From contig CP091723.1 in assembly GCA_022009775.1 (NCBI GenBank), positions 69,345 through 133,344 of the forward strand: 64,000 nt of DNA. Reading direction: 5' to 3'. Below the pieces are notes generated by a model. It had not been told where the DNA came from, made no database searches, and saw nothing but the letters and a program-made list of their open reading frames with translations. The position numbers and the translations under genes are program-made. Of this stretch, positions 24,783 through 54,104 are shown piece by piece (within the stretch, counting starts at the first letter, position 1; every line of letters starts with the position of its first letter). This DNA is from Christensenella sp. GTDB taxonomy: Bacteria > Bacillota > Clostridia > Christensenellales > CAG-917.

Positions 24783-24876
24783 ACAAGACAATCCTTTGCC
24801 TTTCAGCAGTATTTTCGTGGTTCTACCGCGCAGAAAATCTTTGCTATCAGTTCATACACGGACAAAAACTCCTGCC

Positions 24877-24945
24877 ACAATTCCGCAGATTGTCTGCTTG
24901 CTATCCAAGCGGAGACGCTCTTTTTCGTGTTCCAAGGGTGTGGAT
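24877..24945 (+). repeat. direct repeat copy 1 (69 nt)
   Basis: ACAATTCCGCAGATTGTCTGCTTGCTATCCAAGCGGAGA...TTCGTGTTCCAAGGGTGTGGAT. Near-identical to 25166-25235. Confidence 0.85.
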
Positions 24946-26221: not shown

Positions 26222-26250
26222 TTGACATTTTGCGCATAGATTGCTAAAAT
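26222..26250 (+). promoter_or_regulatory. sigma-A-type promoter of recombinase gene
   Basis: TTGACA, 17 nt, TAAAAT. Confidence 0.55.
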
Positions 26251-26288
26251 ATTTTCGAAAAATATTTTATAAAGGAAAATTTTTCACT

Positions 26289-27374
26289 ATGGCAAACTAT
26301 TTCAACGAACGCGAAAAAATTATGACTAAACGTCTTTACGCAATGCGCGAGCAACTCCCCGCTTTCTGCGAGGACTTTTTTGTGGGTATCGAGCCACAAA
26401 CAAGCATACTGTCAAGGCTAAATTATGCCTACGACCTGAACATTTTCTTCGACTATTTACTCAAAAACGTACGTACGTTCAAAGACTACACCGACGTGCA
26501 CGAATTCGTTTGCGAAGACTTGAACAAGATCACGCTCGGCAATCTCGAAGCATATATGGAATACCTTTCTTATTTCGAGTTCGGCGGAAAAGAACACACC
26601 AACGGCGAAAAAGGCAAATCGAGAAAGATATCCACCGTTCGCACGTTTTTCAAGTACTATTTCAACCATGACCGCATACCGAGCAACGTTTCTGCAAAAC
26701 TTACCATGCCCAAACAGCACGATAAAGATATTATTCGTCTTGAAAAACGAGAAGTCGAACGCATACTCGACGTTGCCGAAACAGGCGAAGGAATGAGCGA
26801 CCGACAAAAGAAATTTCAACGCAACACACGCTCGCGCGATTTTGCGCTCGTATCGCTGTTGCTGGGAACGGGTATCCGTGTCAGCGAATGCGTGGGACTC
26901 AACGTGAACGACATAGATTTTGAAACGAATGCCTTCACCATCACACGAAAAGGCGGAAATCAAGCTATATTGTATTTCGGAGACGAAGTTGCAAGTGCTC
27001 TGAAAAATTATATCGATCACGAGCGCAAGAACCTTATCGAGCGCAACGAAAAAGTTAAAGGCGTTGAAAAAGACGCCGTTTTCCTTTCCTTGCAGGTTAA
27101 AAGACTTTCCGTGCGTGCGGTTGAAAACATAATCAAAAAATACGCACAAACCGCCGCTCCGCTCAAAAAGATTTCTCCGCACAAACTACGTAGCACGTTC
27201 GGCACGAATCTTTACAGAGCGACGGGCGACATATATCTCGTTGCGGACGTTTTGGGACACAGAGACGTAAACACCACCAAAAAGCACTACGCCGCAATCG
27301 AAGAAGACCACAGAAAACTCGCGGCGCAAGTCGTTAAACTTCGCCCCGGTAGAACTCCGAGCGACCAAGAATGA
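26289..27374 (+). CDS. tyrosine recombinase/integrase (XerC/XerD family)
   Basis: C-terminal catalytic motifs ...HKLRSTFGT...LGHRDVNTTKKHYAA. N-terminal SAM-like core-binding domain. Confidence 0.85.
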   Translation: MANYFNEREKIMTKRLYAMREQLPAFCEDFFVGIEPQTSILSRLNYAYDLNIFFDYLLKNVRTFKDYTDVHEFVCEDLNKITLGNLEAYMEYLSYFEFGGKEHTNGEKGKSRKISTVRTFFKYYFNHDRIPSNVSAKLTMPKQHDKDIIRLEKREVERILDVAETGEGMSDRQKKFQRNTRSRDFALVSLLLGTGIRVSECVGLNVNDIDFETNAFTITRKGGNQAILYFGDEVASALKNYIDHERKNLIERNEKVKGVEKDAVFLSLQVKRLSVRAVENIIKKYAQTAAPLKKISPHKLRSTFGTNLYRATGDIYLVADVLGHRDVNTTKKHYAAIEEDHRKLAAQVVKLRPGRTPSDQE

Positions 27375-29599: not shown

Positions 29600-29995
29600 T
29601 GCTCTTCTAACCGCGCCGAGAATTTGCGTACACTAAAATAATTGAACGTTTAAAACCCTAAATGCAACATTACCCCTTCCCTTCGGGCTTTCCCCTACTT
29701 CTCGAATATAGTACTTTCTCTTTTTAAGTACACATCGCTCGAAGAGGTGAAGGCGGCACTCGCATAGATAGGTATCGTCCCCTTATTATGCCACCACGCT
29801 TTGTGCGCCGGCTCCGCAACAACACGGCGCAGTCGCTCGTACAACCGTCAAGCTCGGCGCTTATCTCGGCGTTCGCCTTGCGAACGCTCACTTCGAATAT
29901 ACACATTCCGCGTATAAGTACCCATGAATGAGTGAACGTCAAAGACCGCTCCACAAACTCGCGGTTGGTGGCTTATATACACTTCTAACCGCATT
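29600..29995 (-). ncRNA. copy A of conserved structured non-coding element (unknown class)
   Basis: Shares long blocks with 35365-35820 and inverted 52261-52585, with compensatory changes in at least 2 helices. No conserved ORF. Strand inferred from G-U pairs in the other copies. Confidence 0.5.
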
Positions 29996-35069: not shown

Positions 35070-35240
35070 TAACGACTCGATTTGAAAAATCCAAAAGAGA
35101 CGCCGACGCGTCTCTTTTGTTTTTGCCGTGATTGTTCACACCCGATAGCAACAATTTGCCTTCCTTTGCTTGCGAATAATATCGTCAAATCGTTGACTAT
35201 TTCAAATTGAGTTGGTATAATAGACAAGCATTAAATATTT

Positions 35241-35315
35241 AGGGGAGTGGCTCAATGGTAGAGCAACGGTCTCCAAAACCGTCGGTTGCGTGTTCGAGTC
35301 GCGTCTCCCCTGCCA
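35241..35315 (+). tRNA. tRNA-Trp (CCA)
   Basis: AGGGGAGTGGCTCAATGGTAGAGC, anticodon loop CTCCAAA, encoded CCA. Confidence 0.9.
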
Positions 35316-35316
35316 A

Positions 35317-35346
35317 GAAAAAGCACCTTTTAGGTGCTTTTTTTCT
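35317..35346. terminator. bidirectional intrinsic terminator after tRNA-Trp
   Basis: GCACC-TTTTA-GGTGC extended by A/T pairs, with T-runs on both strands. Confidence 0.7.
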
Positions 35347-35364
35347 TGCAGTTTTTCTTTTTCT

Positions 35365-35820
35365 GCTTCTAAACAGTACACACTTTAAACTTTAATACAA
35401 CGTTACCCATTCCCTTCGGGCTTTGTCCGACTGCGGCGTTTGCAAAGCATCCGCCTTGTTCGCTTTGGCTACAATTCGTCCACTGGACGACTTGTTTTAC
35501 GCGTCGCGCCCTACTTCTCGAACATAGTGCTTTCTCTTTTTAGCCACACATCGCTCGGAGAGGGGAAGTCGGCACTCGCACAGATAAGTATCGTTCCCTT
35601 ATTATGCCACTTCGCCTGCGTGGCGGCTTGGCAACACAGTGCCACGCATTCTCGTACAACCATCTTGCTCGGCGCTTATCTCGGCGTTCGCCTTGCGAAC
35701 GCTAACTCCGAATAAGCATAGTCCGTTTATAAGAACACTTCGAATAGGCTTTCGTTTCGGGCGCAACCCAAAAACTTTGTCATCATGAGAGTATCGAAGG
35801 ATCTCGTGGAAACGAAACGC
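35365..35820 (-). ncRNA. copy B of conserved structured non-coding element (with ~84-nt extra domain)
   Basis: Collinear with copy A. Insertion at 35425-35508. Distal stem 35748-35758 x 35809-35820. Confidence 0.5.
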
Positions 35821-35939
35821 AAAACTTTTTCTGCGCCGTGCCATATATATTCATTGTTTATTATTGATTCCGATTAATTCTTTTTTCTCAATCTCACATT
35901 TATATTGCAAATCGTGGCTTTTTTGTGTACAATGAAATC

Positions 35940-36422
35940 ATGAAAAAGAAAGTTGACATATACACTGACGGAGCATGCTCGGGCAATCCCGGTATCGGCG
36001 GCTGGGGCGTTGTTATGCTCTACAAAGGACATAAAAAAGAAGAAAGCGGTGCTGAATCGTCTACGACGAACAACCGTATGGAACTCACCGCCATCATACA
36101 AGGACTGAAAATGCTCAAAGAGCCGTGCATCGTCACAGTGTACAGCGACAGCGCATATTCCGTCGAGCCGTTTCTCAAAGGTTGGATAAACGGCTGGGTT
36201 ATGAAAGGTTGGCGCACGGCAAGCAAAGACGAAGTGAAAAACGTCGATTTGTGGAAGGAACTTCTCTCCCTTATGCAAATCCACGAAGTGTCCTACGTGA
36301 AAGTCAAAGGTCATGCCGACAACGAACTTAACAACAGATGCGATTATCTTGCCAGAACCGCAATCAAGAAACTTCAAAAATCGATACCGGCAAGTATTCC
36401 GCCGATTCCCGACGGAATTTGA
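35940..36422 (+). CDS. rnhA: ribonuclease HI
   Basis: IYTDGACSGNPG...TNNRMEL...SDS...GHADNELNNRCD DEDD catalytic motifs. Confidence 0.9.
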   Translation: MKKKVDIYTDGACSGNPGIGGWGVVMLYKGHKKEESGAESSTTNNRMELTAIIQGLKMLKEPCIVTVYSDSAYSVEPFLKGWINGWVMKGWRTASKDEVKNVDLWKELLSLMQIHEVSYVKVKGHADNELNNRCDYLARTAIKKLQKSIPASIPPIPDGI

Positions 36423-52087: not shown

Positions 52088-52260
52088 ACTTTTATCTTGT
52101 TCCAAAGAAAAACTTTTTCGCTTGTAAATTTTTGTAAAAAAACCACCCTGACACAAAATAATTAATAAAGAATAATTAACAATGAATAATTGCGACACGG
52201 GCACAAAAAGAATTATCGTTTCGCTTCCGCGAGATTGGCACGTTCTCGCTCGCAATGACA

Positions 52261-52585
52261 TAGTTTTTTTGGTTGCGCCCGAAACTAAAGTTTATTCAGG
52301 GCGTACTTATAGGCATTATGCGTTTATACAAAGCGTGGAGCCGCAAGGCGGCGACCGCATCGAATGCCGAGCTTGACGAAAAGTACAAGCGACTGTGCCA
52401 TGTTGTTGCGAAGCAGGCACACAAAGCGCAGTGGCATAATGAGTGAACAGTGCTTATTATGCGAGTGCTGAGTGTTGCCCCCTGCTGCGCAGTCGCCGTG
52501 GGTTCCCTTGTAAGGGGGAACGGCGATGGGGAAACAGATGACGAAGGGGGAAGTCGCATTAATGACACATATCGAAAACTCATGT
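52261..52585 (+). ncRNA. copy C of conserved structured non-coding element (inverted relative to A/B)
   Basis: The 5' motif TTTTGGTTGCGCCCGAAAC is shared with B. The core blocks GCCGAGCTTGAC, GTGGCATAAT and TGCGAGTGC are shared with A/B. G-U pairs and a GUAA loop occur only on the plus strand. Confidence 0.5.
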
Positions 52586-52587
52586 AA

Positions 52588-52708
52588 AAACGCACTAAAT
52601 AGATAAAGAACAAGGAAGAGCCACCAAACACAGATGGGAGCGTACTTTGTCGTACGTGACCGTATGTGTTGGTGGCTCTGACGCAGTTATTTGCTATTTA
52701 GTGCGTTT
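52588..52708. repeat. nested long inverted repeat (two 15-bp stems)
   Basis: AAACGCACTAAATAG (52588-52602) pairs with CTATTTAGTGCGTTT (52694-52708). The inner stem is GAGCCACCAAACACA / TGTGTTGGTGGCTC (about 52617-52680). The outer arm overlaps the stop codon of the 52698..54104 gene. Confidence 0.7.
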
Positions 52709-54104
52709 GAAGGATGTTGCGAGCCATATACACACCCATCACCGACGCCATCATAAGTCCGCGAGTCCAGCCGCTGCTGTCGCCGAGGCAATGGAGACCT
52801 TTGATTGATGTGTTGAGATGCTCGTCCATCTTGATTTTGTTGCTGTAGAATTTGAGTTCTGGGCTGTAAAGCAAGGTTTCGTAACCTGCAAATCCGGGGA
52901 CGACCTTGTCGACTGCCTGAATGAAGTTGATGATGTTGAGCATCGCTCTATACGGCATTGCGGCAGTTATATCGCCTGCAACGGCGTCTTTGAGAGTGGG
53001 ACGGACGTTTGAGAAGCCGAGTTCTCTTTGCCACGTACGCTTACCGCTCAAAATATCGCCGTAGCGTTGAACCATGATTTTGCCTGCGCCGAGCATATTG
53101 GTGAGTTCACCGACCTTTTGCGCGTACTCGATGGGCTGTTTGAAAGGTTCGGTGAACGAATGGGAGCAAAGAATTGCAAGATTCGTGTTGTCGCTCTTCT
53201 TTTCCTTGTAACTGTGTCCGTTGACGACCGCAAGGTCGTTGTCATAGTTTTCCTGCGACACGAAACCGCCGGGGTTTTGGCAGAAAATACGCACTTTGTT
53301 CTTGAACGGATCGGGATAGCCGACAAGTTTTGACTCATAAAGCACATCGTTGACTTCTTCCATAATCTCGTTGCGAACTTCGACACGAACGCCTATGTCT
53401 ACGACACCCGGTGCATGTGCGATATTGTGTTCCGCGCACATTTTTTCAAGCCAGTCCGCACCGCGTCTGCCCGTTGCGATGATGGTTTTGTCCGCGTAAA
53501 TCTCTTCCTGATTTTGTCCCTTGCTGTCTTCGATATACACGCCCTTGCAGGTGTCGCCGTCAAGAATGATGTTGTCGCATTGTCTGCCAAAGATAAGATC
53601 GACTCCGTTGTTTCTCAAATAATTCTCGATTGCAAGGTACAAATCATGCGCCTTTTCGGTGCCGAGATGGCGAATGGGGCAATCGACGAGTTTTAGACCT
53701 GCCTGAATCGCTTTGCGGCGGATATCCTTCACTTTATCTTCGTTGCCGAGACCTTCGATGTGTTCGTCCGCGCCGAATTCGAGATAAATGCCGTCCGTGT
53801 AATTAATGAGCGATTGAGCAAGTTCAGATCCGATGAGTTGCGGAAGTTCTCCGCCCACTTCGTACGAAAGCGACAATTTGCCGTCAGAAAACGCGCCTGC
53901 GCCCGAAAAACCCGTTGTGATATGGCAATACGGCTTGCAGTTGCGGCATTCTCCGCCAAAAGTCTTGGGACATACACGTTTTTCGACGGGTTGTCCTTTT
54001 TCGATGATGCACATTTTCTTTTTGCTTCCGTTGCGCAAAAGTTCAATTGCCGTAAAAATGCCCGCAGGGCCTGCTCCAACAATACAAATGTCGTATTTTT
54101 TCAT
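52698..54104 (-). CDS. FAD-dependent oxidoreductase (COG2509-like)
   Basis: IVGAGPAGIFTA dinucleotide fold. 468 aa. Confidence 0.8.
   Translation of the reverse strand: MKKYDICIVGAGPAGIFTAIELLRNGSKKKMCIIEKGQPVEKRVCPKTFGGECRNCKPYCHITTGFSGAGAFSDGKLSLSYEVGGELPQLIGSELAQSLINYTDGIYLEFGADEHIEGLGNEDKVKDIRRKAIQAGLKLVDCPIRHLGTEKAHDLYLAIENYLRNNGVDLIFGRQCDNIILDGDTCKGVYIEDSKGQNQEEIYADKTIIATGRRGADWLEKMCAEHNIAHAPGVVDIGVRVEVRNEIMEEVNDVLYESKLVGYPDPFKNKVRIFCQNPGGFVSQENYDNDLAVVNGHSYKEKKSDNTNLAILCSHSFTEPFKQPIEYAQKVGELTNMLGAGKIMVQRYGDILSGKRTWQRELGFSNVRPTLKDAVAGDITAAMPYRAMLNIINFIQAVDKVVPGFAGYETLLYSPELKFYSNKIKMDEHLNTSIKGLHCLGDSSGWTRGLMMASVMGVYMARNILQTH

Follow-up and report, generated by a model that had tools for sequence, protein, structure and literature searches.

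A multi-copy modular repeat, probably a mosaic interspersed element, in intergenic spacers of uncultured human-gut Clostridia

Bacterial interspersed mosaic elements and repetitive extragenic palindromic elements (BIME/REP) often lie at the 3' ends of genes, and the enterobacterial repetitive intergenic consensus sequences or intergenic repeat units (ERIC/IRU) of enterobacteria and Vibrio are intergenic repeats of about 127 nt, which exist in shorter forms and in forms lengthened at fixed internal positions by ~70-nt inserts. Repeats of the BOX type occur in dozens to about one hundred copies per genome and have stable predicted hairpins, and their mobilisation is either unknown or in trans. 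Here we analysed an element, called copy B, in a 64,000-nt stretch of contig CP091723.1 from Christensenella sp. (the whole stretch is called 'the window'), where it occupies about 35360-35890 (+ strand) in the spacer between the tRNA-Trp gene and rnhA. We consider B to be, with fair probability, one insertion of a new multi-copy non-coding family of mosaic interspersed repeats (BIME/ERIC/BOX-like). B is composite, consisting of a leader, an insert, an arm, a core and two tail modules, and the copy number of the family, its modular make-up and its turnover were observed directly. The family was undescribed before, yet it is of a known kind of element. A literature search on intergenic repeats in Christensenellales found no paper, and within the literature searched no large modular repeat family had been described before in this widespread uncultured human-gut Clostridia group.

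Copies of the family and the modules of copy B

A blastn search of the window with 35341-35900 matched a copy A at 29649-29921 (+ strand; 80-82% identity, E 2e-60) and a copy C at 52471-52149 (- strand; 68% identity, E 1e-19), and a core profile of 185 positions found A, B and C to be the sole copies in the window. An earlier note on this DNA had described B as collinear with A, and this was borne out by a three-way alignment, in which C was collinear too. Copy A (29643-29963, + strand) lies between convergent genes and has neither the insert nor a tail. Copy C (52149-52707, - strand) comprises a terminator-like module at its 5' side (52586-52707), the 'b' allele of the 5' arm, the core (52292-52468) and a tail of the B type. 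The end of copy B had previously been placed at 35820, and homology with C and with one fetched locus (L022) extends it 3' to about 35890. After a common GGGCTTT, B continues into GTCCGACTG, and the additional stretch closes with CGCGTCGCG before CCCTACTTCTCG, whereas A continues directly with CCCCTACTTCTCG; therefore B carries an 84-nt insert at 35425-35508, as had been noticed before, and the small hairpin reported inside it was found at 35476-35490 (TCGTCC-ACT-GGACGA). The distal stem was likewise confirmed, as 9 perfect base pairs (35750-35758 x 35809-35817) or 11 base pairs with one bulged C over 35748-35820. The stem does not enclose the motif GTTTCGGGCGCAACC(C)AAAAA (35754-35774 in B), as had been proposed; the motif overlaps its 5' arm instead. 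The motif does recur in C (- strand, about 52286-52266), at the 3' end of C in the orientation of the element and not at its start.

The family was searched for with the exact core pattern GCACTCGCA-N17-23-ATTATGCCACNNCGC, and loci of 8 kb around copies were fetched (0.7 Mb in all; labelled L0xx or L1xx below). The pattern occurred in at least 100 stretches. Among the matches listed, about 18 metagenome-assembled genomes (MAGs) were represented, with up to about 18 core loci per genome, and more than 15 stretches lay at contig ends, the contig breaks falling inside copies. An nhmmer profile of the core gave 146 core matches in the fetched loci. The host MAGs were all from uncultured human-gut Clostridia (with labels such as Firmicutes bacterium CAG:238, CAG:475 and 'Christensenella sp.' UBA7571/UBA6880), and the copies found here are confined to a single genus-level group of these. 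A collection of viral contigs had no match to the core pattern. Note that some MAGs of one clade that share the repeat family (L009, L013, L014, L017, L029, L045, L049 and others) carry clashing NCBI names, namely Phascolarctobacterium succinatutens, Bacteroides sp., Anaeroplasmataceae and Butyrivibrio crossotus. Where such a MAG has an rnhA locus among the matches, its RnhA is 85-96% identical to that of the window, and these MAGs are probably mislabelled bins.

Each part of B recurs elsewhere. Its 5' leader (35365-35424, + strand) has the form TTAAT..ACCC..CCCTTCGGGCTTT, a mini-hairpin with a T run after it. In A it corresponds to the homologous 29649-29691 (84% identity in blastn), and L035, L044, L078, L059, L096 and L087 have similar leaders 60-66 nt 5' of their cores. 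The insert (35425-35508, + strand), which is missing from A, follows directly after the GGGCTTT of the leader and contains the internal hairpin at 35476-35490. It recurs in the same orientation at 77-90% identity in L079, L021, L049, L054 and L015, lying 62-112 nt 5' of the core in every recurrence, at the same internal site (5-6 loci). The 5' arm (35509-35570, + strand; CTACTTCTCG...GAGAGGGGAAGTCG) is of the 'c' allele, common to A and B; it is 87-94% identical to its counterparts in L044, L035, A and L096, which adjoin the core in each; the arm has three alleles, of which a and b are found in other copies. The conserved core of B (35571-35748, + strand) matched the profile with an nhmmer E of 4e-38 and gave 117 blastn matches in 93 loci.

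The core is followed by tail module A (35745-35830, + strand), which has GTTTCGGGCGCAACCCAAAAAC and two stems, an inner hairpin (35784-35790 x 35802-35808) and a long-range one (35750-35758 x 35809-35817). Tail A was found in 11 loci, usually 2-7 nt 3' of the core, and stands alone in L114, L074, L022, L043 and L006. Tail module B (35831-35890, + strand) includes TGCGCCG, which is complementary to CGGGCGCA in tail A, and an A+T-rich block ATTCATTGTTTATTATTGATT..., and is homologous to C 52149-52188, L011 and L022. The tail consensus CGCAATTATTAATTATTCATTATTAATT is present in many loci with or without a core, and L114, L117 and L109 have the tail and the A+T-rich block with no core beside them. 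Otherwise the unit is continued at its 3' side by one of a few partners: TATCCGC... with a hairpin after it; a GTCATTSCGAG...GSAATC hairpin; and CGGGTGTGGGTGTCCCACCC followed by arrays of short palindromes spaced by ATATCAC. This hairpin-array module stands alone in L059, and L100 has the full element at that site. Modules of 51 and 153 nt have been gained or lost at fixed points, and the 5' arm, the loop of hairpin P2, hairpins P3 and P4 and the 3' tails are discrete alleles in shuffled combinations. Where units are joined head to tail in tandem (L077, L088), the junction is constant, GAATAAGTG being followed directly by AAGATTCTTCC, and truncated leaders are often fused to full units right after ...G(C/T)TTT.

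The earlier note had put forward a modular RNA architecture with a conserved core and variable insertions. Modularity was upheld by more than 100 copies with a conserved core, optional modules at fixed sites and alternative compensatory stems. The RNA part was not: there was no Rfam match and no sigma-70 promoter or terminator, the minimum free energy (MFE) z-scores were -1.9 and -1.3, and the hairpins were local ones alone. The same note had named, as a finding that would speak against its proposal, an insert and stem that prove to be a fragment of a mobile element, and this is largely what was found, in that both are independent repeat modules and B is missing from the corresponding spacer of sister species.

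Several smaller modules were noticed beside these. The palindrome arrays consist of 3-5 differing perfect palindromes (14-17 nt) with the constant spacer ATATCAC and a period of about 22 nt; they were seen at L059 3330-3440 and 3' of the cores in L023, L032, L033, L062, L066, L080 and L086, and a related array has GATATCA(T/C) instead. The arrays are found in either orientation, core present or not. The terminator-like module (window 52586-52707, - strand; also in many loci such as L053, L065, L094, L064 and L021) lies directly after the stop codons of unrelated genes and has a conserved head, GCGAATAACTG(C/T)GTCA, followed by a long hairpin whose arms differ between copies; in many copies the loop CACGTAC-N-GTACGCT and the T-rich tail TTGTTCTTCATCT are conserved. 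About 75 nt downstream of the six-tRNA cluster of the window there is a further repeat module (24823-24900), which reads ...CACCAAGCAGACAATCTTGCGAAACTGCGGCAGGAGTTTTTGTCC... in reverse complement and was also present in 13 fetched loci.

Invariant blocks and exchangeable hairpins of the unit

Alignments of about 80 copies gave a unit of about 320 nt, which starts with TTCTTCCTCTACAAGAG...TAAAT-N7-CCCC and ends with ...TATAAGTACGCnnnGAATAAGTG(TTCGTT), also written GAATAAGTG(TTCGTT). The core of B contains the blocks GGCACTCGCA, ATTATGCCAC, CTCGTAC, AAGCTCGGC, TATAAG and GAATA, corresponding to blocks that are unpaired and near-invariant throughout the family, namely GGCACTCGCATAGATA, ATTATGCCAC, CTCGTAC, CGTCAAGCTCGGC, TATAAG and GAATAAG. 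Between them are three local stems (all + strand): P2 (35578-35583 x 35602-35607), P3 (35617-35624 x 35641-35648) and P4 (35683-35690 x 35694-35701). The stem of P2 never varies. P3 is represented by at least four unrelated self-complementary stems across copies, which are TGCGTGGC/GCCACGCA, TGCGCC/GGCGCA with or without an outer CCGTCC/GGACGG, GCGGACGA/TCGTCCGC and GCCAACGA/TCGTTGGC. P4 shows compensatory pairs (GCCGC/GCGGC, ATCGC/GCGAT, GTCGC/GCGAC, ACCGC/GCGGT and CGTTCGC/GCGAACG). Among 77 sequences, 98.6% of the cells in the three hairpins were paired and 5 of the 17 pairs changed on both sides; none of 500 shuffles reached the observed values, and slid controls did not come close either. 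A good deal of the mutual information came from two linked P3 alleles, and the covariation of P3 represents few independent events.

A search of all column pairs on both strands found no long-range or closing helix with covariation. A 5'-3' closing helix of GGCGTGTAC with GTACGCC was ruled out because its 5' side varies without compensation, and a 4-bp UGCC/GGCG pairing given by RNAalifold, which conflicts with P2, was not adopted. We also rejected a strand call from an excess of G-U pairs, which proved to consist of invariant pairs at stem ends and left no asymmetry in the robust stems. In these stems the counts of G-U and A-C were 7 and 8, so that neither folded strand, and neither folding as RNA nor folding as DNA, is favoured. 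The MFE z-scores of B, -1.94 (+) and -1.31 (-), were unremarkable. Coding potential was rejected: six-frame translation of A, B and C showed stops in all frames of A, there were frame-breaking indels between alleles, and no reading frame was conserved.

The 3' part of the core (window 35712-35749) is in all copies an imperfect triple direct repeat, (G/T)AATAAG(C/T)(A/G)C, TATAAGTACGC and GAATAAGTG, and the 'a' allele of the 5' arm repeats the start of the unit (CTCTACAAGA) and the P2 loop (ATAGGGGCAATTCTCT); therefore the unit seems to have grown by internal duplication.

Turnover at orthologous spacers and genomic context

We compared the tRNA-Trp/rnhA spacer across about 25 congeneric genomes. 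In L102 and L118 only some 15-25 nt separate the T run of the tRNA terminator from the conserved rnhA promoter, and these are therefore sites without the element. Sequence like B was found in this spacer in the closest relatives only, and other species have different small repeats there; B is thus lineage-specific, and its spacer is a hot spot for small repeats. Presence or absence of the core also differs at eleven other orthologous spacers. Between C and its orthologue (window 52250-52740 against L011 1-800) there were three clean indels of 117, 51 and 153 nt in a background of 94.5% flank identity over 7 kb. All three are complete recurrent modules, and a direct repeat of about 30 nt bounds the first. 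In the same comparison, the 3' TATAAG/GAATAAG segment contains a much more diverged patch. Mean identity of copies was 0.825 within genomes and 0.775 between them, the nearest neighbour was in the same genome for 34 of 79 copies, and orthologous copies were not mutual nearest relatives. The break-points of similarity between near-identical paralogues varied from pair to pair. Together these results point to turnover and to shuffling by recombination, and they gave no evidence of transposition with defined ends.

The left flank of B is the tRNA-Trp gene (35241-35315, + strand; ARAGORN and Rfam), which together with its terminator spans 35241-35346 (+ strand); the terminator was confirmed to be a symmetric arrangement of A run, hairpin and T run, in agreement with its earlier description as bidirectional. 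The right flank is rnhA, encoding RNase HI (35940-36422, ATG at 35940; Pfam RNase_H, E 5e-41). It had been called divergent and is in fact on the + strand, the same as tRNA-Trp and B. Its promoter (TTGCAA-N17-TACAAT, 35905-35933, + strand) is also kept in relatives without the element. The insertion of B looks neutral; it leaves intact the tRNA-Trp terminator on one side and the conserved rnhA promoter on the other. The rnhA gene itself appears leaderless (35905-35942), the promoter ending 6 nt ahead of the ATG without a Shine-Dalgarno sequence, and this arrangement is common to all congeneric loci inspected.

Two other rearrangements were seen at this spacer. In sister species (L107 2700-2880, L113 2575-2955, L117, L125 and L109), a different unit of about 190 nt is present there, singly or as two copies in tandem. 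This unit closes with a repeat, ~55 nt in all, of the final ~20 nt of tRNA-Trp together with its terminator, and it looks like the product of a tandem duplication or of an att site duplicated by a tiny integrative element. The second rearrangement concerns the tRNA-Trp cassette (window 35185-35357), whose promoter, gene and symmetric terminator are together inverted with respect to rnhA in about half of the congeneric genomes (L103, L104, L108, L110-L112, L115, L116, L120, L122 and L123).

The earlier note had asked whether homologous loci also sit beside tRNA genes. Only 1 of 143 cores was within 600 nt of any tRNA, and the tRNA adjacency of B is incidental and not a trait of the family. With genes approximated by open reading frames (ORFs) of at least 150 aa and with orthologous loci inflating the counts somewhat, the 3' end of the element faced the 3' end of a gene in 46 of 63 cases; the orientation class of B and C is the minority one. 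At the gathering thresholds of Rfam 15, the whole window gave 7 tRNAs only, and at E<=10 over 35200-36000 tRNA-Trp was the sole match above threshold, the rest being far below it and mostly on the tRNA terminator. Scans for the consensus of sigma-70 promoters and intrinsic terminators, which cover sigma-70-type signals only, found none inside A, B, C or the tandem pair of L077, and inspection by hand for sigma-54-like promoters and for promoters at the junction (TTGAAT-N18-TACAAG) gave only weak or mis-spaced matches. When ORFs of at least 120 aa from 100 loci were clustered, no neighbour protein was recurrent, the clusters being spurious ORFs of the repeat or housekeeping paralogues such as ABC ATPases, and no transposase or recombinase recurred beside about 105 copies in the fetched loci.

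The window also encodes an Xer-like tyrosine recombinase of 377 aa (26241-27374; Phage_integrase, E 7e-35; NCBIfam matches to XerS, XerC and XerD below their cut-offs), which lies between the tRNA cluster and the gene for a 676-aa PadR-domain protein in an arrangement syntenic with L017. This gene is 2.4 kb from copy A and is not otherwise linked to copies.

Readings of the family and comparison with known elements

If the family is, as we think probable, a mosaic interspersed repeat, its modules would be exchanged between dispersed copies through recombination at short junction motifs common to them, possibly by gene conversion, by unequal exchange between direct repeats or by template switching at hairpins, and new copies might be made by a trans-acting or host function encoded elsewhere than beside the copies. 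Any effect on the cell would probably be local, exerted by hairpins in the untranslated ends of neighbouring transcripts or by protein-binding blocks, and would not require a stand-alone RNA gene. Several observations weigh against a plain repeat of this kind. The unpaired blocks are near-invariant across species while the hairpin stems are replaced wholesale, which suggests a constraint on the blocks, as RNA or as protein-binding sites, and not pure selfish drift. In co-directional spacers 29 elements were antisense to the genes and 10 were not (p = 0.003, with counts somewhat inflated by orthologous loci), and such an orientation bias implies a strand-specific function or a strand-specific mechanism. 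Recent gene conversion as the source of the extra modules of L011 was not borne out by the 153-nt module, which is only 84.5% identical to its closest paralogue, L022 of the same genome. Empty-site comparisons at three loci met spacers that were too diverged or held other modules, so that the insertion junctions were unreadable, and within this limit no target-site duplication was recognised; no terminal inverted repeats and no copy-linked transposase or recombinase were found. It is conceivable, if rather doubtful, that the ~320-nt unit belongs to a new class of multi-copy functional nucleic-acid element, expressed or recognised strand-specifically as the orientation bias hints, in which hairpins and inserts are exchangeable scaffolding; it would then be either a structured RNA with the invariant blocks as its active core, or a guide-like or recognition module for a recombinase acting in trans at sites with a hairpin plus T run.

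A related possibility, which we hold to be on the unlikely side, is that the unit is a multi-copy structured non-coding RNA, either a family of small RNAs or a cis element of untranslated regions, with the blocks as functional core and the hairpins and insert as dispensable peripheral domains. This would account for invariant blocks between stems that are swapped for unrelated complementary ones (at least four P3 stems, and compensatory changes in P4), for optional domains at fixed sites, for the biased orientation relative to genes and for the conservation of the family across species whose other spacer DNA is unalignable, and a non-canonical start signal might lie in the invariable AAAT-N7-CCCC spacing of the 5' end. 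However, the copies scanned (A, B, C and the L077 pair) have no promoter or terminator consensus, no long-range helix covaries, the MFE z-scores are -1.9 and -1.3, and the robust stems are as poor in G-U as in A-C, favouring neither strand. The P3 covariation is mostly that of two linked alleles, and correction by template switching can yield compensatory palindromes without selection on RNA. Frequent presence or absence at orthologous sites, together with three module indels at 5% divergence, would also be unusual for a functional RNA gene.

Alternatively, though in our view improbably, the repeat could derive from a mobile element and be non-autonomous, with a site-specific enzyme moving it in trans and integrating it beside sites with a hairpin plus T run. 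Candidate enzymes would be an IS110-type recombinase, a single-strand transposase of the IS200/IS605 or RAYT type, or an Xer-like tyrosine recombinase, and such an enzyme might recognise the hairpins or the junction motif, in which ...AAGTG meets TT(C/T)(G/T)(G)TT. The constant junction of the head-to-tail tandem pairs, the orientation bias and the repeated joining of units and inserts right after a hairpin and T run (gene terminators, the leader CCC..GGGCTTT(T) and CACGTGTTT) are all consistent with it, as is the lack of terminal inverted repeats, which IS110 and IS200/IS605 share, and an Xer-like gene is at hand in the window at 26241-27374. That gene, however, is merely syntenic (L017) and 2.4 kb from A, no transposase or recombinase is recurrent beside the ~105 copies, the break-points of paralogues vary so that there are no fixed ends, and there is no match to HEARO or to another Rfam family. 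The 10-nt direct repeat CTTTTTCTGC (35357 and 35825) corresponds to the consensus of the tail module and does not establish a target duplication. A further reading takes B for an attL/attR remnant at tRNA-Trp, left behind by an element with tRNA genes as its integration sites. It is suggested by the position of B directly 3' of tRNA-Trp and by the ~190-nt units of the sister spacers (L107, L113, L117, L125 and L109) that end in a duplicate of the tRNA-Trp 3' end and terminator. It is essentially excluded: B has no duplicate of the tRNA 3' end, the ~190-nt units differ from B in sequence, and of 143 cores a single one is within 600 nt of any tRNA.

The mosaic interspersed repeat remains our preferred interpretation, and the family is of practical concern in that it breaks short-read assemblies, with many contigs ending in a copy, makes spacers structurally variable at the strain level and is mistakable for a structured RNA gene. 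If it is merely a BIME-like repeat, it is ordinary; it would become more interesting if transcripts or a cognate enzyme were found. The combination of invariant blocks, replaceable hairpins and orientation bias is atypical of plain selfish repeats, and because of this combination the family is a reasonable candidate for a function at the transcript level or in protein binding. It is also a candidate for a new route by which small elements spread beside terminators.

Among known classes, the joining of units and inserts right after a hairpin and T run resembles class C group II introns. Unlike these, the unit does not have GUGYG and AY as its 5' and 3' boundaries, its orientation relative to the terminated gene is not sense and no reverse-transcriptase ORF was found; over B, RF00029 and the D1-D4 models gave no match at E<=10, and no hairpin like domain V/VI was seen by eye. 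HEARO or omega RNA (of IscB/TnpB) and the bridge RNA of IS110 are comparable in being a few hundred nucleotides long, in having many copies per genome and in standing sometimes alone. The present unit differs from such transposon guide RNAs in that it has no match to RF02033 or another Rfam model and no IscB, TnpB or IS110-type gene beside its copies, and in that a small set of recurring modules follows the unit instead of a sharp conserved 3' end with a variable guide. With regard to miniature inverted-repeat transposable elements, a scan of 35340-35900 for inverted repeats found internal stems only, and the ends of the unit, 5' TTCTTCCTCTACAAGAG and 3' GAATAAGTGTTCGTT, are not complementary.

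The closest likeness in organisation is to the interspersed repeats. Like the BIME/REP (palindromic unit) repeats of Escherichia coli and other enterobacteria, the family is multi-copy and intergenic, recombines palindromic hairpins with non-palindromic linkers and encodes no protein. It differs from REP in its length (about 320 nt against 35-40 nt), in having no sequence relationship and in being dominated by long invariant non-palindromic blocks, with hairpin stems that vary between copies. No GTAG/GTGG tetranucleotide head and no alternating orientation were seen among the copies, and no RAYT gene was present among the fetched loci (8 kb around copies; ORF clustering, 100 loci). The ~70-nt inserts of ERIC, as known from established work, parallel the 84-, 51- and 153-nt optional modules of this family, but ERIC is a single imperfect palindrome from another phylum, whereas the present unit is not palindromic overall. 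BOX (boxA-boxB(n)-boxC), RUP and SPRITE of Streptococcus pneumoniae are likewise modular intergenic repeats of Firmicutes in which the number of internal modules varies. BOX modules are of 45-59 nt, and BOX and RUP have terminal inverted repeats or ends like those of insertion sequences, in contrast to the present family, in which no such ends and no similarity in sequence were found. With mosaic repeats in the broad sense the family shares many dispersed intergenic non-coding copies, and a limited set of modules that are recombined, the optional ones at fixed sites.

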